DNA from: a virus
Length of the DNA stretch: 64,000 nucleotides
IMG/VR virus record: IMGVR_UViG_3300042378_000602
Strand: one strand, 5' to 3'
Shown: positions 20,701 to 55,515 of the stretch, one piece after another
Layout: every line of letters begins with the position of its first letter
How positions within the stretch are numbered: the first letter of the stretch is position 1
Position numbers and translations under genes: made by a program
The notes under the pieces: model-generated
The model's input: the letters and a program-made list of their open reading frames with translations, nothing else
Told to the model about the DNA's origin: nothing
Databases searched by the model: none

Positions 20701-20912
20701 TTGCTCAGATGGGAAGATTACATCAGATAGGTCTAATTGCACAAAACGTAAGAATTCATTTCCCTGAAGCTGTTGGAATCGGTCCTGATGGATATTATTA
20801 CATTGACTACAAGAAATTAAATTCTGTTGTAGTTGAAGGTATAAAAGAACAACAAGTATTTATTGAAGAGATAACTAAACAAGTAGACGAATTAGAAATT
20901 AAATTGAGATAA
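17751..20912 (+). CDS. collagen-like (Gly-X-Y) tail fibre protein with C-terminal intramolecular chaperone (peptidase S74) domain
   Basis: about 850 aa of uninterrupted GXY triplets (many [12 protein letters not shown]); Cys-rich module; C-terminus [12 protein letters not shown]...[13 protein letters not shown]... of the S74 type. Confidence 0.8.
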
Positions 20913-23896
20913 TGCCATCTAATGTAATTATATATCCTACCGGTAGAACGTGGAACACTGACCCTCATTTTATTTTTGATGATGGAACTAATAAATTACA
21001 ATTCAACGTTTTAACTGACGCAATAAGTCTGTCTGCTGGGTCAATTTCAAATAATTTTGTAATTGGTACAAAAGGTTCAGACAATGGTGTCACAACCTCA
21101 GGGGCTTCCGCACAGTCACTATATTTCAACGCCTCACAATTCATAGGTTCTGGAGGTGTTTGGGTCGGACCAACTGCCGGTATCGCTGGTGCTCAGGGAG
21201 CTCAAGGTGCTCAGGGAGCCCAAGGTGGTCAGGGAGCTCAAGGAGCTCAAGGTGCAAATACAGGAGCTCAAGGTGCTACAGGTGCCCAAGGAGCAACAGG
21301 CGCACAAGGTGCGGCAAACACAACACAAGGTGCTCAAGGTACAATTGGGTCTCAAGGAGCTCAGGGTGCCACAGGAGCTCAGGGTGGAAATACGGGTGCT
21401 CAAGGAGCCACAGGAGCTCAAGGTAACCAAGGAGCTCAAGGTGCTCAAGGAGGAACAGTTGGAGCTCAGGGTGCTCAGGGTGGTCAGGGAGCTCAAGGTG
21501 CTCAAGGTGCTCAAGGTGCAAACACAGGTGCTCAGGGTGCGACAGGTCCCCAAGGAGCCCAAGGAGCGGTAGGTGCTACAGGAGGAGTTCAAGGTGCTCA
21601 AGGTGCCGTCGGTGCCACAGGTGATTTAGGTGCTCAGGGAGCTCAAGGAGCCAATACCGGAGCCCAAGGTGCTCAAGGTGCACAGGGAACTCAAGGTGCA
21701 CAAGGTGCTCAGGGAGGAAATACTGGTGCACAAGGTGCTCAGGGTACTCAGGGTACACAAGGTGCTACAGGTGCTCAAGGAGGAGTACAAGGTGCTCAAG
21801 GTGCTATAGGTACTACAGGACCACAAGGTGCTCAAGGGGCCCAAGGGGCAAACACAGGAGCTCAAGGTGCTCAAGGTGGTCAAGGTGCTCAAGGAGCTCA
21901 AGGTGCTCAAGGAGGAGTACAAGGTGCTCAAGGGGCTACAGGTCCTACGGGGGTACAAGGAGCACAAGGTGCACAAGGAGGAGTACAAGGAGCACAAGGT
22001 GCAACAGGACCTCAAGGAGCTCAAGGGGCTCAGGGATTACAAGGTGGACTTCAAGGTGCCCAAGGTGCAACAGGTGCTCAAGGTGCACAAGGTTCTACAG
22101 GTGCTCAAGGAGGTACCCAAGGAGCTCAAGGTGCCACAGGACCACAAGGTGCACAAGGAGCAATAGGAGCTCAAGGAGGAGTACAAGGTGCTCAGGGTGC
22201 AACAGGAGCAGCGGGAGCTCAAGGTGCTCAAGGAGCCCAAGGTGCAAATACAGGTGCTCAAGGCGCCACAGGACCTCAAGGTGCTCAGGGGGCGACAGGA
22301 GCCCAAGGGGGTGTACAAGGTGCTCAAGGCGCCACAGGTCCTCAAGGTGCTCAAGGTGCTCAGGGGGCTCAAGGTGCAAATACAGGAGCTCAGGGTGCTA
22401 CAGGTCCTCAAGGTGCTCAAGGTGCTCAGGGAGCCCAGGGTGCCAGTCCAGGTGCTCAGGGCGCTCAAGGTCCAAAAGGACCTCAAGGTGCTCAAGGAGC
22501 CCAAGGTGGAAGTGCAGGTGCCACGGGTGCGCAAGGTGCAACAGGTCCTCAAGGAGCTCAAGGTGCCCAAAGTGGTATAACAGGACAGGCAGGAGCTCAG
22601 GGTGCTACAGGTCCCCAAGGGGCACAAGGTGCTCAAGGTGGAAGTGCCGGTGCTACAGGAGCAGTCGGTGCACAAGGAGCTACAGGAGCACAAGGAGCCC
22701 AAGGTGCTAATCAAGGAGCACAAGGTGCTACGGGTGCTACAGGAGCTCAAGGTGCTCAAGGTGCTCAAGGTGCTAATCAAGGAGCCCAAGGTGCGACAGG
22801 TCCACAAGGTGCTCAGGGTTCACAGGGTGCACAAGGTGCTAATCAGGGAGCACAGGGGGCTCAAGGAGCTCAAGGTGCTCAAGGTTCTCAGGGAGCACAA
22901 GGAGCCAATCAGGGTGCACAAGGTGCTACAGGTCCACAAGGTGCACAAGGTGCAATTGGACCAAATAATACGACACAAGGTGCTCAAGGTGCTCAGGGAG
23001 GTCAAGGTACTCAGGGAAGTCAAGGAGCACAGGGTGCTAACCAAGGCGCTCAAGGGGCACCTGGAGTTCAAGGAGCTCAAGGAGCACAAGGTGCACAGGG
23101 TGCTAATCAAGGGGCTCAGGGAGCACCTGGAGTTCAAGGTGCTCAAGGTGCTCAAGGTTCTCAAAGTGCTACTTCGGGAGCACAAGGTTCTACAGGACCT
23201 CAAGGTGCTCAAGGTTCTACAGGACCCGGTCCTGGTCCGCAAGGAGCCCAAGGTCCACAAGGATTGACTGGAGGTGGAGGGAACACAGGTGCACAAGGGT
23301 CCCAAGGAGCTACAGGAGCCACGGGTCCTACAGGTGCTCCTGGTGGAACAGGAGCCACAGGTGCTCAAGGAGCCACAGGATTTGCTGGAAGTACTCAGGG
23401 TGCTCCAGGTGTACCAGGACCACAGGGGGCTCAAGGTCCGACAGGTGTTGGTGGTGCCACAGGCCCAACAGGCCCAACAGGTTTCAAGGGGAATACAGGC
23501 CCAACAGGCCCAACAGGTGCCACAGGTGCTCAGGGAGCACAAGGCGCTAAGTCAGATAAAAGATTAAAAGATAATATAGTTGAATTCAAAGAACCTCTCA
23601 CCCGTCTGAAACAAATCCAAGGTGTTAAATTTACTTGGGACCATGAACATCCTAAAATTAAATTTCATAAGCACCTGAATGCTAAAGAAGCGTTCACAGG
23701 TGATACTTATGGATTCATAGCTCAAGATGTAGAAAAAGTATTTCCTGAGATTGTTGACACTGACCCAACTGATGGATACAAATCTATGGATTATGGACTC
23801 TTGGTTAGTTTAGCCTTCGCATCAATTAAAGAGAATCAAAAAAGAATATTGTCAGTGAAAGATAGAATAAATAGATTAAAACAAGTAGTGAACTAA
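20912..23896 (+). CDS. collagen-like tail fibre protein with C-terminal S74 intramolecular chaperone domain
   Basis: GAQGAQGAT-type triplets across about 800 aa; C-terminus [12 protein letters not shown]...[16 protein letters not shown]; start overlaps upstream stop (TAATG). Confidence 0.8.
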
Positions 23897-26800
23897 TGGC
23901 ATCATACGTAGTATATTCAGGGACGAGTTATCTAAATGCGTGTAATTCTGTGGCATCACAGACTATTTATACACCGTGTCCATCACTAAGTGGAGGTTGT
24001 GTAGTCTATACAGATGCAGGTTATACTAATGTTATTACTTTCTCTCCATTATTACCTAATTTATATCTAAAGGATTCTGTTGATACAACGGTTTGGAAGA
24101 TAAATAGGACAGGAACTGTCACGGAGGTTAGAAAATGTACTGAATTTTCAGGTGATGAAAATATAATTGTTTATCCTGATGGAGCCAATTTTCAACTTAT
24201 AGATTCTGGAGGAACTGCCACTAACTGGTATATGGAGAATGGTGAGTTGAAATTTGGAACTTTAACTTCCACTTTAGCAAGAATAAGTACTTCCTATCCA
24301 AACCTCAGAGTCAGTGGGGGGTCAATAACACTTACTAACAAACTTGCAAATGCCTCGGGAGATTTAATAAATTCAACAGGATGGGTCGGAGCTAAATTAC
24401 CTCAAGGTCCAACGGGTGCTCAAGGTTCACAAGGTTCTACTGGTGCTCAAGGAGCTCAAGGGGGTCAAGGAGCACAGGGTACCCAAGGTTCAACAGGTGC
24501 CCAAGGTTCTCAGGGTGCTCAAGGGGGACAAGGTGCTCAAGGTGCTCAAGGGTCACAAGGACCTACAGGTGCACAAGGTTCACAAGGTGGTCAAGGTTCA
24601 CAAGGCTCACAAGGTTTTACAGGTGCTCAGGGTTCACAAGGAGCTCAAGGAGGACAAGGTGCTCAGGGTTCACAAGGAACTTTGGGACCCACAGGAGCTC
24701 AAGGTTCTCAAGGTGGTCAAGGAGCCCAAGGAGCCCAAGGTTCAACAGGTGCTCAAGGTTCGCAAGGAGCACAGGGTGGACAGGGCGCTCAAGGTTCACA
24801 AGGGGCTAAAGGTCTCACAGGTGCTCAAGGGGCACAAGGTGGACAAGGTGCCCAAGGTGCTCAAGGTTCCCAAGGTACAACAGGAGCCCAAGGTTCCCAA
24901 GGGGGACAAGGTGCTCAAGGTGCTCAAGGCGCAGTTGGTCCTACAGGTGCTCAAGGAGCTCAGGGTGGACAAGGGGCTCAAGGAGCTCAAGGGGCTGTCG
25001 GTCTCACAGGAGCTCAAGGAGCTCAAGGTGGGCAAGGTGCTCAAGGAGCACAAGGGGCTCTCGGTCCTACAGGAGCTCAAGGTTCCCAAGGTGGACAGGG
25101 TGCTCAAGGAGCACAAGGTTCACAAGGTTTAACAGGTGCGCAAGGGTCCCAAGGTGGTCAAGGAGCTCAAGGAGCTCAGGGAGGACAAGGTGCTCAAGGT
25201 GCCCAAGGTCCTAAAGGTCCACAAGGTGCTCAAGGAGCCCAAGGTGCTCAAGGTTCAACAGGAGCCCAAGGTTCCCAAGGTGGAACAGGAGCCCAAGGTG
25301 CTCAAGGTTCAACAGGAGCCCAAGGTTCACAAGGTTCACAAGGTGGAACAGGAGCTCAAGGAGCCCAAGGTTCAACAGGAGCCCAAGGTGCTCAAGGTTC
25401 CCAAGGAGGACAAGGTGCCCAAGGGGCTCAAGGTACAACAGGTGCCCAAGGAGCTCAAGGAGCTACAGGAGGTCAAGGTGCTCAGGGTTCTCAAGGACCC
25501 ACAGGAGCCCAAGGTTCTCAAGGTGCCGGAGGAGGACAAGGTGCACAAGGAGCTCAAGGTATAGTTGGAGCCCAAGGTGCTCAAGGTGGAGGTGGAGGAC
25601 AGGGTGCACAAGGAGCACAAGGAACGACAGGTCCCGTAGGTGCACAAGGTTCACAAGGTGGGCAAGGTGCTCAAGGTTCCCAAGGTGCACAAGGTGCCAC
25701 AGGAGCTCAAGGTTCTCAGGGCGTCGCCGGAGCTCAAGGTGCTCAAGGTGCTCAAGGAGCTGTTGGTAGTCAAGGTTCACAAGGAGGACAGGGTGCACAA
25801 GGAGCTCAAGGTTCACAAGGAGCTCAAGGTGCAACTGGTCCTGGTGGCGGACAAGGTGCTCAGGGAGCACAAGGAGCCACAGGTTCACAAGGTGCTCAAG
25901 GTGGAGGTGGTGGACAAGGTGCCCAAGGTGCTCAAGGGCCCGTCGGTTCACAAGGTTTTCAAGGAACAACTGGAGGTCAAGGTGCACAAGGTGCGCAAGG
26001 ACCTACTGGACCTACAGGTATCACAGGACCTAAAGGGGGTCAAGGTGCACAAGGTGCTCAGGGAGGACAAGGTGCACAGGGACCACAAGGTCATATCGGT
26101 GCAAACGGTGCAACTGGTGTTCCTGGTCCTATTGGTCCCAAAGGACCTACGGGTCCTACGGGAGGTCAAGGTGCTCAAGGAGCTCAAGGACCTGGTGGTG
26201 CTCAAGGGGCTCAAGGTCCTACGGGAGGTCAAGGTTCCCAAGGTGGAGGAGGAGCTCAAGGGGCTCAGGGTCCAACAGGACCTGGAGGTGCTCAAGGTGC
26301 TCAAGGAGCTCAAGGTCCCAAAGGTCCAATAGGTGGACAAGGTTCTCAAGGTCCCACAGGGGCTCAGGGTACCGCCGGAGGACAAGGTTCTCAAGGCGGT
26401 GGTGGTGCCCAAGGTGCTCAAGGTGCTCAAGGTCCGCAAGGAGGCCAAGGTGCTCAAGGCGGTGGTGGTGCCACAGGAGCTCAAGGACCTCAGGGGGGTC
26501 AAGGTGCCCAAGGACCACAAGGTGGTCAAGGTCCACAAGGTGCACAAGGTGCAACCGGTCCAAATGGTTTACAAGGTGCTCAAGGTGCACAAGGTACCAC
26601 TGGTTCTGACCTAAGATTAAAAAAGGACGTAAAAGAAATACAATCCCCACTAGAAAAAGTCCTGAAATTGAGAGGTGTTTCATTCTATTGGAATAAATTA
26701 AATGATGAAACATCCCAATCAGGTAAACATGATATTGGATTCATTGCCCAAGAAATAGGTCATATATTACCTGAATTGGTTTTCAAGAAAAACACCGAGA

Positions 26801-26940
26801 ACGCATATTTCATGGTAAAATATGCTGAAGTAATAGCTGTTTGTTTAGAAGCCATTAAAGAACAATCCTTGATTTTGGAATCTAAAGAAATAAAACTTGA
26901 TGAGTTAGAGACAATAGCCAAGGAAAGAGGACTTATTTAG
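23896..26940 (+). CDS. collagen-like tail fibre protein with C-terminal S74 intramolecular chaperone domain
   Basis: 165-aa unique N-terminus, then GAQGSQG triplets; C-terminus [12 protein letters not shown]...[16 protein letters not shown]; start overlaps upstream stop. Confidence 0.8.
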
Positions 26941-33991: not shown

Positions 33992-34373
33992 GGGTGACCC
34001 GAAATTAAAAAATACTGGAGGTAAGCAATATTCTATGTTTGTGGGACGGTTCCAACCATTTCACGGGGGACATCGATGGATTGTGGATGAATGTCTGAAC
34101 GAAGGAAAAAATGTTTTAATTTGTATAAGAGATATTCAACCTGATGATAAAAATCCTTTTAGTGCTCAAGAAGTTGAATCCAATATCAAAAAAGAGTTGT
34201 GGAAATATTTGACCGACGAGAAAGTAAAAGTTATGATTATACCTGATATCGAATCTGTCAATTTTGGTAGAGGTGTTGGTTATGATATAATCGAACACAT
34301 ACCACCTCAAGAGGTTGGGGAGATATCTGCAACAAAAATTAGAGAAGAATTAAAAAAAGAAGGAAAATTATAA
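33972..34373 (+). CDS. cytidylyltransferase-superfamily nucleotidyltransferase (NadM/NMNAT-type HxGH motif)
   Basis: GRFQPFHGGH near the N-terminus, C-terminal ISATKIR; 133 aa. Confidence 0.55.
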   Translation: MRKIHVEGDPKLKNTGGKQYSMFVGRFQPFHGGHRWIVDECLNEGKNVLICIRDIQPDDKNPFSAQEVESNIKKELWKYLTDEKVKVMIIPDIESVNFGRGVGYDIIEHIPPQEVGEISATKIREELKKEGKL

Positions 34374-35227
34374 TGCAAACTAATAAGATATATCAAGGTG
34401 ATTGTATTGAGGTTATGAAAACATTTCCCGAAAATTCAATTGACCTCATAGTAACATCTCCACCCTATGGTGTAGGAATCGATTATGACACTTTTGAAGA
34501 CGACATCCCTTTTGAAGATTATAAATTGTTTTCAACAAACTGGATGACAGAAGCTTTCAGAGTGTTGAAGGAAGATGGGAGAATTGCTTTGAACATTCCA
34601 TATGAAATAAATCGTCAGAGTCAGGGTGGAAGAATTTTCATGGCGTCTGAACTTTGGCGGATAATGCAGATAATTGGATTCAAGTTTTTCGGGATTGTTG
34701 ACCTAAAAGAAAATTCTCCTCATAGGAGTAAAACCACCGCATGGGGTTCTTGGATGTCACCATCCGCACCGTACATTTACAACCCCAAGGAGTGTGTTAT
34801 TTTGGCGTACAAGAAAAACCACATAAAGAAAGTAAAAGGTCAACCAGAGTGGGTAGGAATCCCTGAGGAGGTCACCAACGAAGAGGGAAAGACCCGAACT
34901 AAAATGATGTATACTGAAGAACAGAAAAGAGAGTTCATGGATTTAGTTTACGGGGAGTGGGATTATTTTGCCGACACGAAACAATTGACAAAGGCAACAT
35001 TTTCATTAGATATTCCTTTAAAGGCAATAAAAATTTTAACTTATAAAAATGATTTGGTTCTTGACCCTTTTGCTGGTAGTGGAACAAGTTTGGTTGCTGC
35101 AGTTATTTCCGACCGTAATTGGATTGGTATCGAGCTTAGTGAAAACTACTGTGGAGTCGCTCAAAAACGAGTACAACATTTCATAGATAAAAAAAACCAA
35201 CCTGAACTTGATTTTGAAAAGGGGTAA
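34373..35227 (+). CDS. DNA methyltransferase, beta-class (N6A/N4C)
   Basis: DLIVTSPPYG (motif IV) N-terminal and DPFAGSGTS (motif I) C-terminal. Confidence 0.85.
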   Translation: MQTNKIYQGDCIEVMKTFPENSIDLIVTSPPYGVGIDYDTFEDDIPFEDYKLFSTNWMTEAFRVLKEDGRIALNIPYEINRQSQGGRIFMASELWRIMQIIGFKFFGIVDLKENSPHRSKTTAWGSWMSPSAPYIYNPKECVILAYKKNHIKKVKGQPEWVGIPEEVTNEEGKTRTKMMYTEEQKREFMDLVYGEWDYFADTKQLTKATFSLDIPLKAIKILTYKNDLVLDPFAGSGTSLVAAVISDRNWIGIELSENYCGVAQKRVQHFIDKKNQPELDFEKG

Positions 35228-39853: not shown

Positions 39854-41062
39854 TTAACAAGGGTATGGTCCTGAAACAACCGTAACAGCACCAATAGTAA
39901 CTGTATATCCACTTCCATCCGTACATATGGTGAGCTGTCCACTAAATGTTTGTGTAAAATAACTACCACCACAATCGAACCATTCTATTGATGCACTTCC
40001 ACCACCAGCATCCAATACATAACCAACACACGTAGAAGGTGTTATTGATGGAGTTGGAGTTACTGTCGGTGTTTCGGCTGGAGTACCTGTATTTGTTGGA
40101 GTGACGGGTGGAGTCGTTGGCGGAGTAGCGGTATTTGTAGGTGTCGTAGTATTTGTTGGGGTCACTGTGGGAGTTGTAGTATTAGTGGGAGTTACCGAAG
40201 GTGTAGGTCCAATCGTTGGGGTAACAGAAGGAGTTTGAGTTTGTGTTGCGGTGACTGACGGGGTTGGTGTAGATGTTCTAGTCGGGGTTGGAGTTGCGGT
40301 TGCTTGGCTTGTAGGAGTTGGTGTCGGAATGTTTGCATTTGTAAGTTCACAAAGACTAATTCTTACACCGCCATATTGTATACTTGGTGGAGATGAAAAT
40401 GTTATTTCTGTGAAAGGGGAAGTTGATTGAACTAAAAATCTTGCTAATCCATCAGTATTTACCGCTGTGATTGTACCGTTGTTGATATTGAAATTACAAC
40501 CTGTACATTGAGTTATTATTGGAGTTTGAGAATTGTTTAAAGTTATGGTAACTCTATCTCCATTCGGGAAAGCATCACCATTCCAAACACCTGAATTGAA
40601 CATCAATGATGAGATGGCTTGACTAAATCTAAAAGTAACAGTTGCACCTGACCCGAAAGACACGACACCAGTTCCTGGTCCAGGTTTTATTGTAATTGGG
40701 ATTTCTTGACAAGAGTAGTTGTTTGGACCATAGGTAAATGTATTAGTTGAACATACTGAGTTAAAAGTATAACCAGTTATTTGTATACCATTACTTGTTA
40801 CCACTTGACCATTACAAGGGGTATTTATTACATTACATGTAGGACAATTATTCAAATCCCTTTGAAACCATTCTTCACTAATTACTAAAGAATTTTCGTA
40901 GAAATTACTTAAAGAGAAGGTATCGTAAATTGCCCAAACATTTTTTGTTTGATTTGGTAAGAGTGGGACTTGGTTTTCAAATTCGCTTGAATCACATTTT
41001 CTATAACTAAATGTTACAAGAGTGTTACCCGTGTTGGTTAGAGTATATTTTTTACAATTCAC
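39854..41062 (-). CDS. hypothetical protein with Thr/Pro-rich linker (probable surface/structural or host-interaction protein)
   Basis: central 90 aa TPTPTSQATATPTPTRTSTPTPSVTATQTQTPSVTPT... linker between two Cys-containing globular parts. Confidence 0.55.
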   Translation of the reverse strand: MNCKKYTLTNTGNTLVTFSYRKCDSSEFENQVPLLPNQTKNVWAIYDTFSLSNFYENSLVISEEWFQRDLNNCPTCNVINTPCNGQVVTSNGIQITGYTFNSVCSTNTFTYGPNNYSCQEIPITIKPGPGTGVVSFGSGATVTFRFSQAISSLMFNSGVWNGDAFPNGDRVTITLNNSQTPIITQCTGCNFNINNGTITAVNTDGLARFLVQSTSPFTEITFSSPPSIQYGGVRISLCELTNANIPTPTPTSQATATPTPTRTSTPTPSVTATQTQTPSVTPTIGPTPSVTPTNTTTPTVTPTNTTTPTNTATPPTTPPVTPTNTGTPAETPTVTPTPSITPSTCVGYVLDAGGGSASIEWFDCGGSYFTQTFSGQLTICTDGSGYTVTIGAVTVVSGPYPC

Positions 41063-43409: not shown

Positions 43410-43658
43410 ATGAATTATTTAATTTCCGAATCACAATTAGAATCATTAGTATCGGCACAACAACCTGTACCTGTAATGTCATTCAGGTCTGCACTGAAAA
43501 AGATTGTAGATGTCTTGAAAAAAGATGATTATGAACCAGAACAAATAATGGATTTTATCCTTGGACTAAGATATAAAGATGAGTTTGTTATCAGAAAGGT
43601 TCAAAAGTACAAGGACGACCCTGAGTTTCTCACTGCGGTTTCCAAAATTATTGGATAA
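43410..43658 (+). CDS. hypothetical protein
   Basis: start trimmed from 43206 to ATG 43410 (MNYLISES) to remove the 170-nt antisense overlap with 42907-43377. Confidence 0.4.
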   Translation: MNYLISESQLESLVSAQQPVPVMSFRSALKKIVDVLKKDDYEPEQIMDFILGLRYKDEFVIRKVQKYKDDPEFLTAVSKIIG

Positions 43659-44523
43659 ACTCATCTATATTTTTAGGTGAACTATCGAAACCGTAATATC
43701 TGATTTCGAACTGAGGACTGAGTAAAATTTGTTTTTCCTCATCGAATTCATTACAGTAAACAACGCCTTCTTCTATCTCTTCTAAAAATTCTATATCTAA
43801 ATCACCCCATTCTCTATAATTGAGAGTTATTATATTCGGGTTGTTTTCGATGTTTTCCCTTGCTCCGACAGGTTCGGGTCTCCCGACATTTAATTCACAA
43901 AGATTCTTTAGATTTTTATCCCAAGAACAAATGAATATAAGCTCGATAGATGAATCCGTACCTTCTAACTCGCCATCGGCATTACAGTTATGACAATCAA
44001 GTCGGGATTCACCGTCACAACGACTACAATTGACTGTACCTCCGCCATCACATTCCTCGCAATCAACTTCTCCACTTCCGTCACACATGTCACAAGAAAC
44101 CTTTTCACCTGCGTCACCTTCTATTTTACCTTCCCCATCACAATCACTACAAATTACTTGACCACTACCATCACACTCCGAACACGACTCGTTACCACTT
44201 CCGTCACATTCTGAGCATTCAAATCTTCCTTCACCATAACAATCACCACACTCCTCAACATATTGTGAACCTGTTTTCCAAAAGAGAGATGCGAAGAAAA
44301 GATTTTCCAAAGCGAAATCGGCGAATTCGAAATTTCCCTTTTTTTTCAAGGACAAGATATAAAAATAAAATTTCAAAAACTCCTGAGGAGTAAAACTAGA
44401 AAAATATATTGCTTGTTTTTTTGCGACCTTTTTCAACACATTAAAAATGTCATTGTTATGTTCAACGTTACGGAACATTCCGATAAGTTGCTGTGCCAAC
44501 CTTTTCAACCTTTCATCTGTCAT
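43648..44523 (-). CDS. protein with at least eight tandem CxxCxGxG (DnaJ-type) zinc-finger units, no J-domain
   Basis: CSECDGSG, CSECDGSG, CSDCDGEG, CDMCDGSG, CEECDGGG, CSRCDGES, CHNCNADG repeated through the middle of the protein. Confidence 0.55.
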   Translation of the reverse strand: MTDERLKRLAQQLIGMFRNVEHNNDIFNVLKKVAKKQAIYFSSFTPQEFLKFYFYILSLKKKGNFEFADFALENLFFASLFWKTGSQYVEECGDCYGEGRFECSECDGSGNESCSECDGSGQVICSDCDGEGKIEGDAGEKVSCDMCDGSGEVDCEECDGGGTVNCSRCDGESRLDCHNCNADGELEGTDSSIELIFICSWDKNLKNLCELNVGRPEPVGARENIENNPNIITLNYREWGDLDIEFLEEIEEGVVYCNEFDEEKQILLSPQFEIRYYGFDSSPKNIDEFIQ

Positions 44524-44555: not shown

Positions 44556-45017
44556 TTGAAAATAAATCAACTATTTTTTTTTTATAAAACTTTTTATATG
44601 GGTATTACGGTCACACTTACAGAAAATGAAATCTTGGGTAATCCCAATGATTTTGATTTGGGCGAATTGGCTCGAAACAAATATTGGCAAGAAAGAAGAA
44701 ATCAGGAAGGTCCACCTGTGGATGATGAACATTTTTTCTTGAATATCGGAGATGATGGTTTGGTTAAATCTATCGGAAGACCATGGACTTGCTCAATTTG
44801 TGGAGAAAAAACTGATAAAGTGGATTATGATTATCTTGTTGGTTGGGACCATTTGAGTTGCAGATTGAAGTCTGAAATGAGTGATGAGAAAGATAAATGT
44901 GTAATCTGTGGAAAAGAATCACCCTATACTAAAAGTACTCATATCGATATGAGAATCGGTTATGTTGAAGGAGGTGGACAAGGTTGTTTTCAACCAAATC
45001 AATGCGATAAAGTATGA
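44556..45017 (+). CDS. hypothetical zinc-ribbon protein
   Basis: paired Cys motifs CSICGEK...C and CVICGKE. Confidence 0.4.
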   Translation: MKINQLFFFYKTFYMGITVTLTENEILGNPNDFDLGELARNKYWQERRNQEGPPVDDEHFFLNIGDDGLVKSIGRPWTCSICGEKTDKVDYDYLVGWDHLSCRLKSEMSDEKDKCVICGKESPYTKSTHIDMRIGYVEGGGQGCFQPNQCDKV

Positions 45018-45146
45018 TTGAAACCTTTGACCATGAATTGATTTCTTTGAGTGGTTCCACAACTTTATCTTATACGGAGTGGCATATAAACAGGGACAAC
45101 ATGGCTAGAGACCAAAGAAATCTCGAAGTTCATAATATTAAAAAAG

Positions 45147-45671
45147 ATGATTGAGGTTTTTGATGAGTTTCTCACCCCTGAGGAAATAACTGAGTTGTTC
45201 AAAACTCTAAGGGAGAGTTCTTGGATTTTGGAAGAAAAGGTCCCTTATCTTTCCGAAGTTCAATTAGAGGGAGGTGCTGATATTGGTTATATAAAAGAGA
45301 TACCTGAGAACACCATATATTGGAAGATTTTGGGTCGATTACATTCTTTACCAATAATATCAGGAAAATACAAATTCTTTTCAGCATTCCGAAATGCATA
45401 CAAGAGAGGAGATGTTACAGCTCTCCATACAGATGAGTCAGATATCACAGCACTTTTATATGGTAATCCCAAATGGAACATAAATTGGGGTTCGGAAACC
45501 ATTTTTACTGAAAGTTTATCACCTGATACAGAGATAATTGCGAGCATAATACCCAAACCTGGTAGGTTGGTAATTTTCGATTCTTCTATCCCACATTCAG
45601 GTAGACCACCAAGTTCAAGTTTTGCAAACCACAGATATTCAGTGGCTTATAACTTCAAAAAAATAATTTAA
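45147..45671 (+). CDS. 2OG-Fe(II) oxygenase, prolyl-4-hydroxylase-like
   Basis: ALHTDES (HxD), ITALLYGNPKWN..WGSETIF, GRLVIFDSSIPHSG (distal His), HRYSVAYNF (RxS). Confidence 0.6.
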   Translation: MIEVFDEFLTPEEITELFKTLRESSWILEEKVPYLSEVQLEGGADIGYIKEIPENTIYWKILGRLHSLPIISGKYKFFSAFRNAYKRGDVTALHTDESDITALLYGNPKWNINWGSETIFTESLSPDTEIIASIIPKPGRLVIFDSSIPHSGRPPSSSFANHRYSVAYNFKKII

Positions 45672-45700
45672 AAAAAATTTGTTGGTTTGATGGAATAGTC

Positions 45701-45708
45701 TATCTTTG
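45701..45708 (+). promoter_or_regulatory. Bacteroidetes-type promoter (-7 TATCTTTG, -33 TTG near 45679-45684)
   Basis: TAnnTTTG; ATG 45729. Confidence 0.55.
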
Positions 45709-45728
45709 TGTAACAAAACACAAACATC

Positions 45729-46199
45729 ATGACAAACACCACAACCATCCCCGTAGTTAAAGTATCTAACGATTCAATGGCAGGAGACGTATTCTACGGT
45801 TCCTTCAACACCACTGTAAAAGGTAAACGTATCACAGTCGGAGTTTCCAATCACATCAAAGACGTAAACAAAACCTATAAGTTCCGTTCAGCTGCTAAAT
45901 GTAAAGCTGGTTTCGTGAACATCAGCGATTTCGAAGACACCCCTCAAGGTGCTATCTGTTCTTGGGTAAAAAACGCACTTGTCAACCTTCAAGTTTTGGT
46001 TGAGTTCGATGGTGGTGTAACACAATGGCACAACGTCTATACCACGAAGGGTGGCGTATGGTACCACATCGACCGTGGACTTCTTGAAGTGTTGACCGTT
46101 GGAGCGATGCGTGAGTCATTCCCCAATATGTGTGACATGAGCCTTTGGGAAATGGTTGGAGCTAAGACTTGGGCAGACAAAGCATTCACTAATCAATAA
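45729..46199 (+). CDS. hypothetical protein, GC-rich codon usage, poly-Thr N-terminus (MTNTTTIPV)
   Basis: ORF between host-type promoter and hairpin terminator; codon usage and GC differ from neighbours. Confidence 0.55.
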   Translation: MTNTTTIPVVKVSNDSMAGDVFYGSFNTTVKGKRITVGVSNHIKDVNKTYKFRSAAKCKAGFVNISDFEDTPQGAICSWVKNALVNLQVLVEFDGGVTQWHNVYTTKGGVWYHIDRGLLEVLTVGAMRESFPNMCDMSLWEMVGAKTWADKAFTNQ

Positions 46200-46207
46200 T
46201 AGCTGAC

Positions 46208-46230
46208 GGAAGGGGGTTATTCCCCCTTCC
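46208..46230 (+). terminator. hairpin terminator (weak U-tract)
   Basis: ggaaggggg-ttatt-cccccttcc directly after the stop. Confidence 0.4.
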
Positions 46231-46249
46231 ACTATGCGAAACAAATCTC

Positions 46250-46435
46250 ATGCGAAACAAAAAAAATAAAACCAGCACTTTGAGTCCGAAACACAAGATG
46301 TTCCTCGAGCTATTGGAGAACCGTATCAAAGAGATTCACGGGGAAAAAAAGGTTGAGGATGTTCGAAAGGAGGTGGGGTACCCTAAGTGTGATGAGGGGG
46401 ATTATTATTTTGCTCTTCTAAAATTTTTGAAATAA
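46250..46435 (+). CDS. small hypothetical protein
   Basis: ORF; tandem atgcgaaacaaa duplication at its start. Confidence 0.3.
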   Translation: MRNKKNKTSTLSPKHKMFLELLENRIKEIHGEKKVEDVRKEVGYPKCDEGDYYFALLKFLK

Positions 46436-46461
46436 TTTTTTGTTGGTAACAAATATATCCC

Positions 46462-46469
46462 TATCTTTG
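46462..46469 (+). promoter_or_regulatory. Bacteroidetes-type promoter (-7 TATCTTTG, -33 TTG near 46440-46445)
   Basis: TAnnTTTG; lies inside the track ORF 46440, so the true start is ATG 46491. Confidence 0.55.
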
Positions 46470-46490
46470 TATTCGCAAAACACAACACAT

Positions 46491-47243
46491 ATGACAACCA
46501 CTACCACAATCTCCGTCCAAGACAAAGTTCGTAACTACCAAGGTCAAAACCGTTTTATTCTGAACATGAAAGACGCCCTCAACAAGTGGGGAGGACTTAC
46601 CCCAAAACAACGCGAAGCCGCTGAAAAGGCTTTGAACTCTGAGGTGAAGGTTATCGATAAGGAAAACCTTCCTGAAAACATTAAACGTATTGTCGAGTAC
46701 AAGGGTGATAACACCTTTGTTAAAGACATCGCTTCCAAGTTCGAGAAATACGGTACTCTCACTTCTAAGCAAATCTCTGCGGCTGTTACGCAGATTCAAA
46801 AAGAGGAAGATAAAGATAACACCATTCGCATGAATTGGGGTACCCCTGGTGAAACCATAGTTGTGGGTCGTAAAATCGGTCAGCAGTTGAAAGAAAAATA
46901 TGGTTTGGAATTCAATCCAACTTTAATTGATATAACCGCTCTTAGAGCTGTATCACCCAAAGCTGTACTGTTCGAAGGAAAAATGACTGTCAAACGTGGT
47001 AAAGTTTGTATGTGTTGTAACAAAACTTTGACAGACGAGTTTTCGATGTTGACAAACATGGGTAAAACCTGTGCTGGTCACATGAAAGTCGAATATATCA
47101 CTGACGCTTCACAAGCAGAGGCTTTCCGTGAAAGATATCTGAAAAGAGTGGAAGAGATAGGAGTCATGCAATTTTGGGTCCCCAAATCCCAAATCAAAAA
47201 ATGGGATGGTAAAACAGGAAGGGTTGTTGCCACATCCTTCTAA
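46491..47243 (+). CDS. hypothetical protein, GC-rich codon usage, poly-Thr N-terminus (MTTTTTISV), Cys cluster CMCCNK..C
   Basis: start trimmed from 46440 to 46491; same leader and N-terminus as 45729 gene; strong terminator follows. Confidence 0.55.
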   Translation: MTTTTTISVQDKVRNYQGQNRFILNMKDALNKWGGLTPKQREAAEKALNSEVKVIDKENLPENIKRIVEYKGDNTFVKDIASKFEKYGTLTSKQISAAVTQIQKEEDKDNTIRMNWGTPGETIVVGRKIGQQLKEKYGLEFNPTLIDITALRAVSPKAVLFEGKMTVKRGKVCMCCNKTLTDEFSMLTNMGKTCAGHMKVEYITDASQAEAFRERYLKRVEEIGVMQFWVPKSQIKKWDGKTGRVVATSF

Positions 47244-47249
47244 GGGTTT

Positions 47250-47276
47250 AACCCACCGAAAGGTGGGTTTTTTTTA
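47250..47276 (+). terminator. intrinsic terminator
   Basis: aacccacc-gaaa-ggtgggtt plus ttttttt. Confidence 0.65.
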
Positions 47277-47287
47277 TTCTTGTTTTT

Positions 47288-47644
47288 TTGTATACTTGTA
47301 AAATGAGTAGGAGATACAAAAACCCCGAGGAGGCTGAAAATGCCATGATTGAAAATATCCTCGACAATTTTGATTTTTATAAATGTTGGACCGTGATGAA
47401 GCTTTTGGAGTGGAGTTGGGGTATGAATGCAGAGATTCCGAATATTGATAGATTAAAAACTGCGGCAGCTAACAGATTAAAAGATGCGATAGAATTAGCA
47501 AAGAAAGGTGAGTCTCCCCATTTAACCTACTTTGTTTCAAGTGGTGGTCTGAAAGCTACCGCTTGGAGGAATAGATATCGTCAAATTGAAGCAATAAATT
47601 TGGAATTTGTTCTCACAGACTGGCAATCTGACGGAGATTGTTGA
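47288..47644 (+). CDS. hypothetical protein
   Basis: ORF; TATACTTG (near TAnnTTTG) at 47269-47276 upstream. Confidence 0.45.
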   Translation: MYTCKMSRRYKNPEEAENAMIENILDNFDFYKCWTVMKLLEWSWGMNAEIPNIDRLKTAAANRLKDAIELAKKGESPHLTYFVSSGGLKATAWRNRYRQIEAINLEFVLTDWQSDGDC

Positions 47645-47674
47645 CAATTTCAGACATGAACGTAAACTTTTATC

Positions 47675-48922
47675 ATGAAGACAAAAAAACCGAGTGCGAT
47701 AGTTTATAATTGGTACAAACAGGGTGAGGAATTATTACAAACTTCAATTTATTCTGAAGAAGGGCTTTGGGAAGAAATCATGGTTTATTCTTTACCTTAC
47801 ACAGATAATGTGGCCGAAGATTATTCCAAGTATAGACCTGATATTATTGTTTCGATTGGGACTCACGTGAATGTACCTCATTATCAATTACAACAAATTT
47901 ATGTTTTCATAGAAAATCCTTTGGGTGATTATGATTTGGCTAACACGATATGTAAGGAAGCTATTTACAAAAACCTTACATACCATAGACCACGATTTTC
48001 GGTCTTCACACCAGCATATAAGACTTATGAAAGAATTAAAAGAACTTATGAGAGTCTGAGGTCTCAAGTTTGGACTAATTGGGAATGGGTCGTAGTAGAC
48101 GATTCGCCTGACGAAATAACATGGAACCTATTGAAAGAAATTTCTTCGAAAGACTACAGGGTTAAAATTCATCGTATTTACCCGTTATCGGGTGGTAATG
48201 TAGGTTTGGCCAAACATAGAGCAGCTATGTTATGTGATGGTGATTGGTTGGTCGAGTTGGACCATGATGATACTTTGACCACAGAGTGTTTATCCACTTG
48301 TAATGATGCCATCATCAAATATCCTGATGCAGGATTTTTATATACGGATGTTTGTGAATTATATGAGGATGGTGAGATGAAATCTTATGACCATGATTGG
48401 ACAGGTGGTTGGTATGCAAGACATGATAATTTTTTTGATTTTGGTTATGCTGGTCACACTTGGGTTGAAGTAGATGGTAGAAAAATTTTGGCACACTGGT
48501 ACCCTGATATAAATCCATTATCAATAAGGTTCAATATATCCATGCCCGACCACGTGAGAATGTGGGAAAGAAACCTATATCACAAAATAGGTGGACACAA
48601 TAAACTTACTCCTGTTGCGGATGATTTGGAGATTATAATAAGAAGTTTTTTACATACACGGTTTATTCACGTAAAACGTGTCCTATATTTGCAATGGAAT
48701 AATCGTAACAGTACGGTTGATAATAATGCTCAAGATATAAATCGAAGAGCAAGAATTATTAGAGACTTTTATGATAAAGCAATCCACGAAAGAATTTTAT
48801 CCTTGGGATTCAAAGATTGGAATTGGGATGAAGAAAAACAAGAATCACAAAGATTCCAAAATCACGTGGCAATAAAAAAATATTTCGAAGAAGAAGAAGT
48901 AATGAATTACATTTATGAATAA
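47675..48922 (+). CDS. glycosyltransferase family 2
   Basis: GT-A N-terminal signature SVFTPAYKTYERIKRTYESLRSQ..WEWVVVDDSPDE and DxD (LDHDDT). Confidence 0.75.
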   Translation: MKTKKPSAIVYNWYKQGEELLQTSIYSEEGLWEEIMVYSLPYTDNVAEDYSKYRPDIIVSIGTHVNVPHYQLQQIYVFIENPLGDYDLANTICKEAIYKNLTYHRPRFSVFTPAYKTYERIKRTYESLRSQVWTNWEWVVVDDSPDEITWNLLKEISSKDYRVKIHRIYPLSGGNVGLAKHRAAMLCDGDWLVELDHDDTLTTECLSTCNDAIIKYPDAGFLYTDVCELYEDGEMKSYDHDWTGGWYARHDNFFDFGYAGHTWVEVDGRKILAHWYPDINPLSIRFNISMPDHVRMWERNLYHKIGGHNKLTPVADDLEIIIRSFLHTRFIHVKRVLYLQWNNRNSTVDNNAQDINRRARIIRDFYDKAIHERILSLGFKDWNWDEEKQESQRFQNHVAIKKYFEEEEVMNYIYE

Positions 48923-50078
48923 CAAACCAAAAATCTGTATGAACGCGATGGTAGGCAATGAAGCCAAAACCATCACAAGAATGTTAGAATCTGTTGCTCC
49001 ACACATTTCTTATTGGGTAATCCAATGTAATGGAAAAGAGGATAACACGAAAGAAATCATCGAGAAATTTTTTAATGAAAGAGGTATTCCTGGATTCACA
49101 TATGAGATAGATTGGAACTATCCAGGTTGGAATAGAAACCATACACTCCAAAGAGCCCTTCAAGCAAATCATGGTTGTGATTGGATTTTGAGAATGGATG
49201 CGGACGAAAGATTACAAATTGATGAAGATTTCGATTGGAATATTCTTTCTGACACCACTATTGATAGCTTCAATGTACCCGCATCTGCTGCAGATATAAA
49301 GTATTTCAGAACTTGGTTATGGAATGCTAAGTTACCATGGTTTTTTGCGGATGATAAACGTCACGAAACAATACATTTACCTGAAATCGGAGAAAGTTTT
49401 GTAAGAATAAATCTACCTTTCAGTTTTCGTCATTTAGTTTCCCAAGATGGAGAAACATGGCATGTTCCTCGTAAATTTCTGAGAGACGCTTTAGAATTGG
49501 AAATTGATAAAGTTGTTGGTAATAAAGTTAAAGATGACCCATATCATTTATGGTATATAGCTAAAAGTTATGCAGATTGTTATGGTAATCCTGATGAACT
49601 TCCATTTGGAAGACTTCACTCCGAAGAGTATGCTCGAAGAAGTATTTGGTATTACAATAGGTTTTTAGAACAAGTTCACGATTGGCATAATCAAAAAACC
49701 GCCACTCGTTTTGATGAAATGGCATACTTCGCATTCATCATGATGGGACAAGCCCTTCAATTTTTGGGTCAATTAGAAGATGCAATTCAACACTATTATT
49801 GGGCTGGACAATTTGCTCCAATGAGAAACGAACATTATATATATTTGAATTTCCTACTTCAAAGTTTGAATCGTAATGAAGAATTACTGAGAAATTTGGA
49901 TTATATGTTGTCTTCAGACAGAGTAAATCCTTGGCCAGGTTCTTCATTTTTGATTGAAACCAGAGCTTATTACGATACAAGTGATTTCTTGGTAAATTGG
50001 AAAAACGAAATAACCCAAAAATTGTCCGCTCCAACCGTATCAAATGATAGTTTTAGATTCGACCCGTCTCAATTTTGA
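48915..50078 (+). CDS. GT-A-fold glycosyltransferase-like protein with C-terminal helical repeat region
   Basis: ILRMDADERL (DxD) after an N-terminal Rossmann-like segment; start overlaps upstream stop. Confidence 0.5.
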   Translation: MNNKPKICMNAMVGNEAKTITRMLESVAPHISYWVIQCNGKEDNTKEIIEKFFNERGIPGFTYEIDWNYPGWNRNHTLQRALQANHGCDWILRMDADERLQIDEDFDWNILSDTTIDSFNVPASAADIKYFRTWLWNAKLPWFFADDKRHETIHLPEIGESFVRINLPFSFRHLVSQDGETWHVPRKFLRDALELEIDKVVGNKVKDDPYHLWYIAKSYADCYGNPDELPFGRLHSEEYARRSIWYYNRFLEQVHDWHNQKTATRFDEMAYFAFIMMGQALQFLGQLEDAIQHYYWAGQFAPMRNEHYIYLNFLLQSLNRNEELLRNLDYMLSSDRVNPWPGSSFLIETRAYYDTSDFLVNWKNEITQKLSAPTVSNDSFRFDPSQF

Positions 50079-51162
50079 TTATATAATTGTCGGTGCAGGA
50101 CCTTTCGGATGTGTTTGTGCTCACGAACTTACTCAGAAAGGAAAAAAGTGTCTCGTTGTCGACAAGAGATGGACCGTAGGTGGTAATTGTTATACTGAAA
50201 ATGACGGTGGTATTCACGTTCACAAATACGGTGCCCATATTTTCCATACAAACGACAAAAAGTTATGGGACTACGTGAACAAATTTGCTGAGTTTCGTCA
50301 ATACACTCATAATGTAATTGCCGACTTCAAAGGAGAAAGGTATACACTCCCATTCAACATGTGGACCTTTAACCAACTTTGGAAAATCAATGACCCTGAG
50401 TTGGCTAAGGCTAAGTTGGAACAAACAAAGTACAATGGTATGATTTCTAACCTTGAAGAGCAGGCGGTTTCGATGGTTGGGAACGAAATTTATCAAAAAC
50501 TTATAAAAGGGTATACAGAAAAACAGTGGAACAGAGATTGTAAAGATTTACCTCCTTCTATTATCAAAAGAATACCTGTAAGGTTCAGTTGGGATAGTAA
50601 TTACTTTGATGACAAATATACAGGTATGCCTATCGGCGGATATACACAAATATTCGAAAAAATGTTAGAGGGCGTAGAGGTTAGGTTAGGTATAGATTTT
50701 TTTGATTATCAACACAATTTAGAAAAACAAACACAGAAAATAATTTATACTGGACCAATAGATAGATTCTTTGATTACAAATTCGGAAAACTTGAATATA
50801 GAAGTTTGAAGTGGAGTACAACACGATTGGATATAAATAATTTTCAAGGTATACCTGTTGTGAACTATACAGATAGAGAAACTCCATACACTAGAATTCT
50901 TGAACATAAGTGGTTTGACCCACAAAATCAAAAGGGAACAATTATAAGTTATGAGTTTCCCACTGATTATGATGGGGACAACGAACCTTACTATCCAATC
51001 AGGGATGAAAAAAATACCTCAATTTTCGAGAAATATAATAACTTGGCCAAGTTGGAGAATAAGTATATATTTGGTGGTCGATTAGCATCCTATGTTTATT
51101 ATGACATGCATCAAGTAATTGCTCAAGCTCTAAAACTAACAAATGAACTCTCAAATTCTTGA
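50044..51162 (+). CDS. glf: UDP-galactopyranose mutase
   Basis: DYIIVGAGPFGCVCAHEL..KKCLVVDKRWTVGGNCYTE..GIHVHKYGAHIFHTND matches the Glf N-terminus. Confidence 0.9.
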   Translation: MIVLDSTRLNFDYIIVGAGPFGCVCAHELTQKGKKCLVVDKRWTVGGNCYTENDGGIHVHKYGAHIFHTNDKKLWDYVNKFAEFRQYTHNVIADFKGERYTLPFNMWTFNQLWKINDPELAKAKLEQTKYNGMISNLEEQAVSMVGNEIYQKLIKGYTEKQWNRDCKDLPPSIIKRIPVRFSWDSNYFDDKYTGMPIGGYTQIFEKMLEGVEVRLGIDFFDYQHNLEKQTQKIIYTGPIDRFFDYKFGKLEYRSLKWSTTRLDINNFQGIPVVNYTDRETPYTRILEHKWFDPQNQKGTIISYEFPTDYDGDNEPYYPIRDEKNTSIFEKYNNLAKLENKYIFGGRLASYVYYDMHQVIAQALKLTNELSNS

Positions 51163-54309: not shown

Positions 54310-55515
54310 ATGGAAAAGAAGAAGATAGGGATAGTCGATTGTAACAACTTCTATGTTAGTTGTGAAAGAGTTTTTAATCCCATTTCAATCGGACGACCAA
54401 CAGTTGTGTTATCAAACAACGATGGTTGTGTTATCGCTCGTTCTCAAGAAGCGAAAGACCTTGGAATTAAAATGGGTGAACCATTCTTCCTAAAAAAAGA
54501 TTTCATGGAAGAGCACAGGTTTTGTGTATACTCCTCCAACTATAATCTTTACGGTGATATGTCTGACAGAGTCATGACAATAATAAAAAAGTATGCTACC
54601 GAAGTTGAAGTATATTCTATTGATGAATGTTTTGTTGACTTCTCAAACATACCTGATGATGAATTGATGGATAGACTTTTACTTATTAAAAACGAAGTGA
54701 AAAGATTGGTTGGAATTCCTGTTTCAATCGGTGTTGGTCCAAATAAAACATTGGCAAAACTAACTTCATACATTGCCAAAAAACAAGACTCATATAACGG
54801 AGTATGTTCTTATTGGACTTTACAAAATGTAAGGAATTTACTTTACACAATATCAGCTGATGAGGTTTGGGGAATCGGGAGAAAATGGTATAAGAAGTTG
54901 AAAATGATTGGTGTGGATAGTGTTGGACAATTCGTAATGTTGAACGATGGTCTTGTGAGAAAGATGATGACAGTAAATGGGTTGAAAACAAAAATGGAAT
55001 TACTTGGAATGTATTGCCATCCCGTTCAACCTGTTCCAAAATTGAAAAGAAACGTGGCGTCAACAAGGTCATTTGGAAAAGATATTGATACGTTTGACCA
55101 AATAGCCGAGGCTATGTATTCATACGTAAAAAGTGGTGTTAAAAAGTTGCACGAGAATGGAATATCTCCAAACAGAGCAACCATATTCATTGCGGGTAAT
55201 AAACATAAAGATGAAAAACACTACACCAGTAAACAAATACTATTCCAAAAACAGACAAGAGATGAAAATGAGATATGGTCTCAAATCTATCCACATTTGA
55301 AGAAGATGTTCAAAACAGGAAAAAAATATAAAAAGTGTGGAATCATATTCAATGACCTAATGCCTGAATCAATAGAACAGGGGACACTCTTTTCAAGTTC
55401 GATACAAATAGTTCAACCACCAGCAAACGTAGAAAAAGAATGGGAAATGAGACAAGAGTTCATGTCTCAAAAGTTCACAACCTCTTGGAAAGAAATTCCA
55501 TCAGTATTTGTATAA
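54310..55515 (+). CDS. umuC: Y-family translesion DNA polymerase, UmuC/ImpB-like
   Basis: IGIVDCNNFYVSCERVFNP..RPTVVLSNNDGCVIARSQEAKDLGIKMGEPFF closely matches the UmuC N-terminus. Confidence 0.9.
   Translation: MEKKKIGIVDCNNFYVSCERVFNPISIGRPTVVLSNNDGCVIARSQEAKDLGIKMGEPFFLKKDFMEEHRFCVYSSNYNLYGDMSDRVMTIIKKYATEVEVYSIDECFVDFSNIPDDELMDRLLLIKNEVKRLVGIPVSIGVGPNKTLAKLTSYIAKKQDSYNGVCSYWTLQNVRNLLYTISADEVWGIGRKWYKKLKMIGVDSVGQFVMLNDGLVRKMMTVNGLKTKMELLGMYCHPVQPVPKLKRNVASTRSFGKDIDTFDQIAEAMYSYVKSGVKKLHENGISPNRATIFIAGNKHKDEKHYTSKQILFQKQTRDENEIWSQIYPHLKKMFKTGKKYKKCGIIFNDLMPESIEQGTLFSSSIQIVQPPANVEKEWEMRQEFMSQKFTTSWKEIPSVFV

Follow-up and report, generated by a model that had tools for sequence, protein, structure and literature searches.

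A phage 2-oxoglutarate oxygenase of the PHD/prolyl 4-hydroxylase clade and its doubtful connection to collagen-like tail fibres

Introduction

Does a phage whose tail fibres are built of collagen-like repeats also encode the enzyme that would hydroxylate them? The question is raised by a stretch of viral DNA of 64,000 nucleotides (IMG/VR record IMGVR_UViG_3300042378_000602; "the window" below means this whole stretch), which carries a gene for a 174-aa 2-oxoglutarate (2OG)-Fe(II) oxygenase together with three genes for collagen-like tail fibres. The original prediction read the oxygenase as an enzyme resembling prolyl 4-hydroxylase (P4H), encoded alongside proline-containing fibres whose triple helices would be stabilised by hydroxyproline. 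Viral collagen-modifying enzymes are known from chlorovirus PBCV-1 (vCPH) and from mimivirus (the lysyl hydroxylase L230). Were the fibres of this phage hydroxylated, collagen-type post-translational chemistry, so far a matter of eukaryotes and giant viruses, would reach bacteriophages as well, and a compact P4H would become available for the bacterial expression of hydroxylated recombinant collagens.

The evidence points elsewhere. We read the protein as a stand-alone hydroxylase of the PHD/P4H clade, predicted to be competent, whose substrate is most likely a protein, perhaps modified at a prolyl residue, and not specifically collagen, and we give this reading an even chance. On this reading the gene has an accessory or host-interaction role and is no dedicated collagen-fibre modifier. 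As the evidence stands, it adds one more member to a large set of 2OG oxygenases shared by phages and gammaproteobacteria.

Identity and Predicted Fold of the Oxygenase

The motifs from which the enzyme was first recognised (ALHTDES, LLYGNPKWNINWGSETIF, GRLVIFDSSIPHSG and HRYSVAYNF) all lie in the 174-aa product of the open reading frame (ORF) given in Table 1. This product matches the Pfam family 2OG-FeII_Oxy_3 (PF13640) over profile positions 5-97 of 98, with 35.0 bits against a gathering cutoff of 27 (E=2.8e-8), and the phrog_274 profile near its full length (E=5e-20, 73 bits, residues 1-172 on positions 8-179 of 192). When the oxygenase was aligned with 17 database homologs of 28-98% identity, H94, D96 and R163 were invariant and H150 was at least 90% conserved among the 18 sequences; other conserved positions are N83, T101, E117-T118, F120 and the stretch PKPGR-L-V-x-F-D. 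The AF2 model built on the same alignment (pLDDT 90.1, pTM 0.87) consists of two helices followed by a double-stranded beta-helix (DSBH), with hairpins of pLDDT 59-83 in a candidate lid region at residues ~25-55, the most variable part of the alignment. The HxD...H triad and the RxS anchor are borne out by Pfam score, alignment conservation and fold, far beyond chance, and the gene is real and encodes a probably active Fe(II)/2OG oxygenase.

By analogy with the superfamily, H94, D96 and H150 would hold Fe(II), R163 would bind 2OG, and Y85, T101 and Y105 would line the site. The Fe(IV)=O species formed on oxidative decarboxylation of 2OG would then attack a C-H bond in the primary substrate and hydroxylate it. 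The presumed role of R163 as anchor of the 2OG C5 carboxylate is one that we take from the PHD2 R383-type arrangement. In collagen-type P4Hs this anchor is a lysine, and in PHDs it is an arginine, as here.

The closer placement of the protein draws on several comparisons. When the alignment profile was searched against the sequences of the Protein Data Bank (PDB), the significant matches were PolD (E=1.4e-8), OGFOD1 (E=5e-6), PasI (E=1.2e-4) and a Phytophthora P4H (E=2.7e-3), and PHD2 was not significant in this search (E about 0.2). The similarity to PolD and PasI is mainly limited to core residues 83-146. Fold comparison scored highest with Dictyostelium PhyA (18.1), Pseudomonas PPHD (17.7), PHD2 (16.9), chlorovirus vCPH (16.7) and a Trichoplax PHD (16.5), followed by PolD (16.0), OGFOD1 (15.9), HygX (15.7), PiuC (15.7), Tpa1 (15.4) and CrP4H (15.2), and then by AlkB-type enzymes (13.6-14.1), human collagen P4H (13.5) and Bacillus P4H (12.7). 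In a profile alignment with the catalytic domain of PHD2, the paired residues are Y85/Y303, H94/H313, D96/D315, T101/T325, Y105/Y329 and H150/H374, and PKPGRLVIF pairs with PKFDRLLFF. The core motif set of PHD/PPHD/OGFOD1-type hydroxylases (Tyr, HxD, Thr, Tyr, His, Arg) is present, and the nearest folds agree with it.

The assignment to the P4H/2OG-FeII_Oxy_3 group was therefore right, by Pfam score and by fold neighbours: the 2OG-FeII_Oxy_3 profile scored above threshold and the top structural neighbours are protein hydroxylases. As for the opposing expectation that the best homologs might be AlkB-like or small-molecule dioxygenases, the AlkB enzymes proved clearly more distant, and their Pfam family 2OG-FeII_Oxy_2 (PF13532) gave no significant match (E=0.24), yet the best solved-structure sequence match is PolD. 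Within the P4H group the protein looks closer to PHD, OGFOD1 and PolD than to collagen P4H, and because the gradient of fold scores is so shallow, the substrate cannot be read from the fold alone.

Another lead concerned FlmC (NCBIfam NF052475) and a flagellin glycan. The oxygenase reaches 64.1 bits against a cutoff of 240 in this family, only a remote full-length resemblance, and the lead was dropped since the score lies far under the cutoff and Caulobacter FlmC is described in the literature as cytidylyltransferase-like. A search for relevant literature on 9BLQ/PolD or an FlmC oxygenase found none.

Distribution of the Family

An exhaustive profile search recovered 3,134 representative clusters of the family at E<=1e-3 and 1,442 at E<=1e-10. 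The carriers in the phage genome collection are 89 records, all of them cyanophages or marine viruses (24-35% identity) and none a phage of Escherichia, Klebsiella or Salmonella; among viral proteins, those of cyanomyoviruses match best in structure (TM 0.78-0.84). Outside phages the family consists mainly of gammaproteobacterial proteins of ~185 aa (Lysobacter, Alteromonas, Nitrococcus). Judged by sequence, it is common to aquatic phages of marine and fresh waters, especially T4-like cyanophages, and gammaproteobacteria.

A fibre-hydroxylation system encoded by a phage had been expected to be unusual. Many phage entries already have "prolyl 4-hydroxylase alpha subunit domain" in their names. 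Sullivan et al. 2010 (PMC3037559) reported several 2OG oxygenases in each of 14 out of 16 cyanomyoviruses. For a phage to carry an oxygenase with a P4H domain is therefore nothing unusual in itself, and such genes have been catalogued in many cyanophages (PMC3037559). Their settings vary in the cyanomyoviruses: the gene lies between terminase genes in ACG-2014d, in the replication module of P-SSM2, after the tail-fibre genes of S-RSM4 and beside halogenases and a cupin in P-TIM40.

Some family members are labelled "DNA endonuclease V". The proteins so named in RefSeq cyanophages (L010, L065, L066 and L067), in PHROG 274 and in P-SSM2 ("denV", PSSM2_163) are 2OG-FeII_Oxy_3 proteins. An identity with T4 endonuclease V (DenV), a pyrimidine-dimer glycosylase, was rejected, as neither the oxygenase nor the six phage proteins carrying or sharing the label had a Pfam match of that kind, and by its sequence basis the label on phrog_274 and RefSeq entries appears to be a propagated misannotation. 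Longer members also occur (P0124-P0130, P0217 and P0174). Some strong family members are 600-670 aa long with two or three tandem 2OG-FeII_Oxy_3 domains, like OGFOD1/Tpa1, and others are fused to HD/DUF6817 domains. Apart from oxygenase domains in tandem and, in a few cases, HD/DUF6817 domains, the long members showed no fusions, and collagen- or peptide-binding modules were not among them.

Genomic Neighbourhoods of Homologs

The neighbourhood survey covered 69 homolog loci, which fall into 33 lineages at 80% identity; recurrent gene families were collected within 4 kb, and collagen-like ORFs were sought within 10 kb on either side of each homolog. The most frequent neighbour is a 2OG-FeII_Oxy_5 oxygenase (13 of 33 lineages), followed by another 2OG-FeII_Oxy_3 paralog (7 of 33). 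All four bacterial loci (L007, L068, L069 and L070) combine TonB-system genes with 2OG-FeII_Oxy_5 and 2OG-FeII_Oxy_3 genes. A TonB-dependent receptor is found at three of the four, ExbB/ExbD/TonB at two, TPR-sulfotransferases at three and Asp/Arg beta-hydroxylases at two. Cyanophages appear to have sampled several oxygenases of this gammaproteobacterial cluster.

Collagen-like ORFs lie within 10 kb of a homolog in four groups of loci only, and these fibres have no proline and no lysine in the Y position and 2-4 prolines in the X position among 124-130 triplets. They therefore cannot be substrates of a prolyl or lysyl hydroxylase, and the family is no collagen P4H there. A proline-bearing collagen gene within 10 kb of a homolog was found in none of the 33 lineages. 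Taken together, the comparative evidence removes every comparative support for fibre hydroxylation in the window phage.

Three IMG/VR contigs of 89-201 kb (L024, 3788-11896; L025; L019) share a run that begins with a proline-free collagen-like S74 fibre of the GIQ/GTQ type, continues with paralogs of ~330 aa and ends in three oxygenase genes in a row, the first for an Oxy_5 protein, the second for an Oxy_3 protein and the third for a protein of 452 aa whose Oxy_3 domain is C-terminal. In S-SRM01 a tryptophan halogenase gene stands between tail-fibre genes, and tailoring-type enzymes recur inside cyanophage fibre modules.

On a JGI contig (3300017917; L008, 8194-9203), the end of the gene for a cyclophilin-type prolyl isomerase overlaps by 4 nt the start of the gene for a divergent phage oxygenase homolog of 47% identity, which suggests translational coupling, and genes for NifU and HesB-like Fe-S assembly proteins are nearby. 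The overlap hints at peptidyl-proline chemistry.

The Collagen-Like Fibres

Each of the three fibres ends in a Peptidase_S74 chaperone domain (E 4e-10 to 1.7e-14), and the C-terminus of fibre 1, the only fibre scanned against PHROGs, matches tail-fibre PHROGs. Fibres 1, 2 and 3 contain 254, 250 and 245 GXY triplets. Fibre 1 had been described as rich in proline at both X and Y. For X this holds, with proline in 75 of its 254 triplets (26/250 and 31/245 in fibres 2 and 3). For Y it does not: 20/254 in fibre 1, and 5/250 and 1/245 in the others, or 26/749 altogether. The Y positions are mostly Gln or Thr, a dominance typical of prokaryotic collagens (PMC8968730); in animal collagen, sites with proline in Y (X-Pro-Gly) make up about a third of the triplets (PMC8968730). 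In experiments, collagen-like tail-fibre proteins of prophages are stable, with a melting temperature of 42 degrees C, without any hydroxylation (PMC3368898). The oxygenase gene does not stand alongside the fibre genes either. It lies 18-27 kb downstream of them, with about 35 ORFs between, in a different part of the window.

The collagen region of fibre 2 repeats a 66-nt (22-aa) unit about 30 times (21200-23215); each unit is made of seven GXY triplets and one extra residue, so that breaks in the register of the triple helix recur with strict regularity. In fibre 3 the period is a clean 63 nt (seven triplets), repeated about 24 times. Three tandem collagen-like S74 fibres of ~1000 aa are an unusually large investment. 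A reverse scan of IMG/VR with the N-terminal domain of fibre 3 found no relatives, the lineage of the window being absent from that collection.

Local Context in the Window

The oxygenase, the sole one found when the 64-kb window was searched for further oxygenases and partner enzymes, is the second gene of a putative transcription unit of small same-strand genes with short gaps (Table 1). Metagenomic relatives with oxygenases of 76% and 55% identity keep the order of these genes, and apart from a weak DUF6011 match the other proteins of the unit had no informative match in Pfam or PHROG. Against the closest contig-borne relative, identity is 76% for the oxygenase and 92-97% for the flanking genes; the oxygenase evolves faster than its flanks. 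This lower identity, together with the variable positions amid paralogs in cyanomyoviruses (cf. PMC3037559), gives the gene its accessory character. Of the enzymes that accompany homologs in bacteria and cyanophages, namely Oxy_5, Asp/Arg hydroxylase, sulfotransferase, cupin and cyclophilin, none had a significant match in the window.

Table 1. Positions of the oxygenase gene, its presumed active-site codons and other features of the window
Feature	Position	Strand	Remarks
Collagen-like tail-fibre gene 1 (tandem)	17751-20912	+	1053 aa
Collagen-like tail-fibre gene 2 (tandem)	20912-23896	+	994 aa
Collagen-like tail-fibre gene 3 (tandem)	23896-26940	+	1014 aa
Pro/Thr-linker protein	39854-41062	-	402 aa; ~100-aa Pro/Thr-rich (TPTPT...) linker between two Cys-containing domains
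Putative transcription unit	44556-47243	+	Cys-rich 153-aa ORF, oxygenase, 156-aa ORF, 61-aa ORF, 267-aa DUF6011-like ORF
2OG-Fe(II) oxygenase gene	45147-45671	+	174 aa; PHD/P4H-like clade; phrog_274 member
H94-T95-D96 codons (HxD of iron-binding facial triad)	45426-45434	+	H94 and D96 invariant; equivalent to PHD2 H313/D315
H150 codon (distal iron-binding His)	45594-45596	+	Nearly invariant; aligns with PHD2 H374
R163-Y164-S165 codons (presumed 2OG C5-carboxylate anchor, last beta-strand)	45633-45641	+	R163 invariant; predicted strand 163-172
Terminator-like hairpin	47250-47269	+	8 bp stem, 5 GC pairs, T-run; closes oxygenase block
Promoter-like TTGACA-16-TAAACT	47641-47668		Just before GT2 gene

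About 2 kb downstream of the oxygenase, at a spacing kept in all three sub-lineages of the window phage, a glycosylation block (47675-51162) encodes a family 2 glycosyltransferase (GT2; 415 aa), a second GT2 with a TPR-like C-terminus (387 aa) and a UDP-galactopyranose mutase (Glf; Pfam GLF, E=1.4e-78). The 387-aa GT2 has a weak PDB match to the Listeria flagellin O-GlcNAc transferase GmaR (E=0.0056). The block could serve to galactofuranosylate a polysaccharide or a protein of phage or host; conceivable targets are the Pro/Thr-linker protein and, in the fibres, the Y positions rich in Thr. A coupling of oxygenase and glycosyltransferases is weakened by the terminator-like hairpin and the promoter-like site between the blocks and by the absence of the pairing from 30 of the 33 lineages, the remaining three belonging to the window's own lineage only.

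The Pro/Thr-linker protein and fibre 1 are the most proline-dense proteins of the window. The former had no Pfam or PHROG match and is kept in the relatives of 76% identity with a (TPTNT)n linker (L001, 4704-6011). On the minus strand (43648-44523) is a gene whose 291-aa product contains some ten CxxC pairs (CxxCxGxG-type) and resembles the Cys-rich domain of DnaJ/BSD2 (BSD2_CRD, E=5.4e-6); its position is kept in relatives at an identity of only 35-50%. The window comes from a large phage with, in addition, an endolysin-like gene and, at 54310-55515, 2027-2824, 11818-12657 and 34373-35227, a Y-family (IMS/UmuC-like) polymerase, a sigma factor and at least two DNA methyltransferases; no tRNAs were found within the 64 kb. 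Most of its large ORFs lack a PHROG match, and the phage therefore belongs to a poorly sampled lineage. Its relatives come from recent JGI and Logan metagenomes only, and a megablast of the 12 kb around the oxygenase against phage genomes gave no match.

Candidate Substrates

From the family, the predicted fold, the conserved active site and the genomic distribution, all of them read directly, we infer the class of substrate. Most likely it is a side chain of a protein, perhaps that of a peptidyl proline, and the protein would come from either host or phage. Several points weigh against this. The single best match among solved structures, by sequence and by Foldseek, is PolD, with PasI also significant, and both are nucleoside-sugar oxygenases that act on octosyl-acid nucleosides. 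The TonB-dependent receptors adjoining the bacterial homologs could equally point to a small molecule, the cyclophilin adjacency is confined to one lineage, and a protein of 174 aa has no extra domain for substrate recognition, its presumed lid being the least confident and least conserved region. A small-molecule oxygenase, acting on a nucleoside, nucleotide sugar or glycan precursor and perhaps feeding the GT2-GT2-mutase block, or one working on a metabolite tied to TonB-dependent uptake, would accommodate the PolD and PasI matches, the conserved spacing to the glycosyltransferase genes, the TonB-dependent receptors (a setting like that of PiuC) and the HD/DUF6817 fusions. We nevertheless think it unlikely: terminator- and promoter-like elements stand between the two blocks, the GT/Glf association is limited to 3 of 33 lineages, partners of polyoxin-type (high-carbon nucleoside) biosynthesis were not found among the window ORFs scanned, and the top structural neighbours are protein hydroxylases. 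The chances of a nucleic-acid oxygenase, whether for AlkB-like repair or for TET/JBP-like base modification, are slighter by far. Weigele 2007 (as cited in PMC3037559) proposed a role in DNA repair for the 2OG oxygenases of cyanophages, and the window holds several DNA methyltransferases and a Y-family polymerase; against this stand the insignificant AlkB match, the lack of a nucleotide-recognition lid or extra domain, and the "DNA endonuclease V" label being a misnomer, as all proteins so labelled score as 2OG-FeII_Oxy_3. Just as improbable is a metabolic modulator that consumes 2OG, coupled or uncoupled, and shifts the 2OG/succinate balance of the host with no specific macromolecular target. 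The minimal size of the protein would suit such a role, and it has been proposed, via NtcA/2OG signalling, for the multi-copy cyanophage oxygenases (PMC3037559). The strong conservation beyond the cofactor site (PKPGR, N83, E117-T118, F120) speaks against it, the repeated presence of an oxygenase from another family nearby argues for defined substrates, and an uncoupled enzyme normally turns over slowly and loses its activity in the process.

This leaves the proposal with which the locus began, a collagen-type prolyl or lysyl hydroxylase that stabilises the triple helices of the three tail fibres. In its favour, 95 prolines fall within the GXY region of fibre 1 (75 in X, 20 in Y), oxygenase and fibres share one strand of one genome, and homologs adjoin tail-fibre or structural genes in S-RSM4 and in the cyanophages L019, L024 and L025. 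The gene lies amid small non-structural genes, however, at the distance from the fibres given above; canonical X-Pro-Gly sites number 20, 5 and 1, far from the third of animal collagen; and the fibres next to homologs offer neither proline nor lysine in Y. No lineage pairs the oxygenase with a proline-bearing collagen gene within 10 kb, the four bacterial loci have no collagen context, prophage fibres melt only at 42 degrees C though unhydroxylated, and the presumed 2OG anchor is the Arg of PHDs, not the Lys of collagen-type P4Hs. The distributions differ as well: 1,018 phage records have S74 fibre termini, the majority from enterobacterial phages and from groups that lack the oxygenase, against 89 records for the oxygenase. 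With no linkage, no co-occurrence with proline-bearing collagen in 33 lineages and X-Pro-Gly rare, a fibre-hydroxylation system finds no positive support, and we regard it as quite improbable. The same low probability attaches to a variant in which the lone oxygenase has been recruited to hydroxylate prolines of fibre 1, of the Pro/Thr-linker protein or of both, with galactofuranose glycans possibly added by the GT2-GT2/TPR-mutase block; if true, bacteriophages would gain their first virion modification system based on hydroxyproline. The protein-directed, stand-alone hydroxylase that we prefer can be put to the test in this phage. Since the oxygenase is present as a single copy, unlike in cyanomyoviruses with several paralogs, the phenotype of a knockout or of a recombinant assay would be unambiguous, and the phage is a clean test case.

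Comparison With Known Systems

The closest counterparts are the phrog_274 oxygenases of cyanomyoviruses (PSSM2_170 of P-SSM2, SRSM4_206 of S-RSM4, gp093 of ACG-2014d and gp054 of P-TIM40), which have the same size and Pfam family and are 27-35% identical over 96-99% of the length. The cyanophage gene usually stands amid several paralogous oxygenases and related enzymes (Oxy_5, Oxy_3, cupin, halogenase), whereas the window phage has only one in 64 kb. The gammaproteobacterial 2OG-FeII_Oxy_3 proteins are also of the same size and, by profile, of the same family (E 1e-34 to 1e-55, 28-47% identity); in contrast to the phage gene, theirs are chromosomal and lie inside a conserved multi-enzyme cluster that was not found in the window.

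Among characterised enzymes, the PHD-type prolyl 4-hydroxylases (human PHD2/EGLN1, PPHD and PhyA) are 18-24% identical to the phage protein, which is ~30-50 residues shorter. PPHD acts on EF-Tu and Dictyostelium PhyA on Skp1; to our knowledge neither HIF nor Skp1 exists in bacteria, and EF-Tu does. The uS12 prolyl hydroxylases OGFOD1 and Tpa1 are proteins of ~540-640 aa with two DSBH domains, unlike the single domain of the phage protein. PolD, the best match by sequence and by Foldseek, and PasI serve the biosynthesis of aminohexuronic-acid nucleoside antibiotics. Finally, the idea of hydroxylation followed by glycosylation resembles the PhyA-Skp1 pathway of Dictyostelium and the glycosylation of hydroxyproline in plants.

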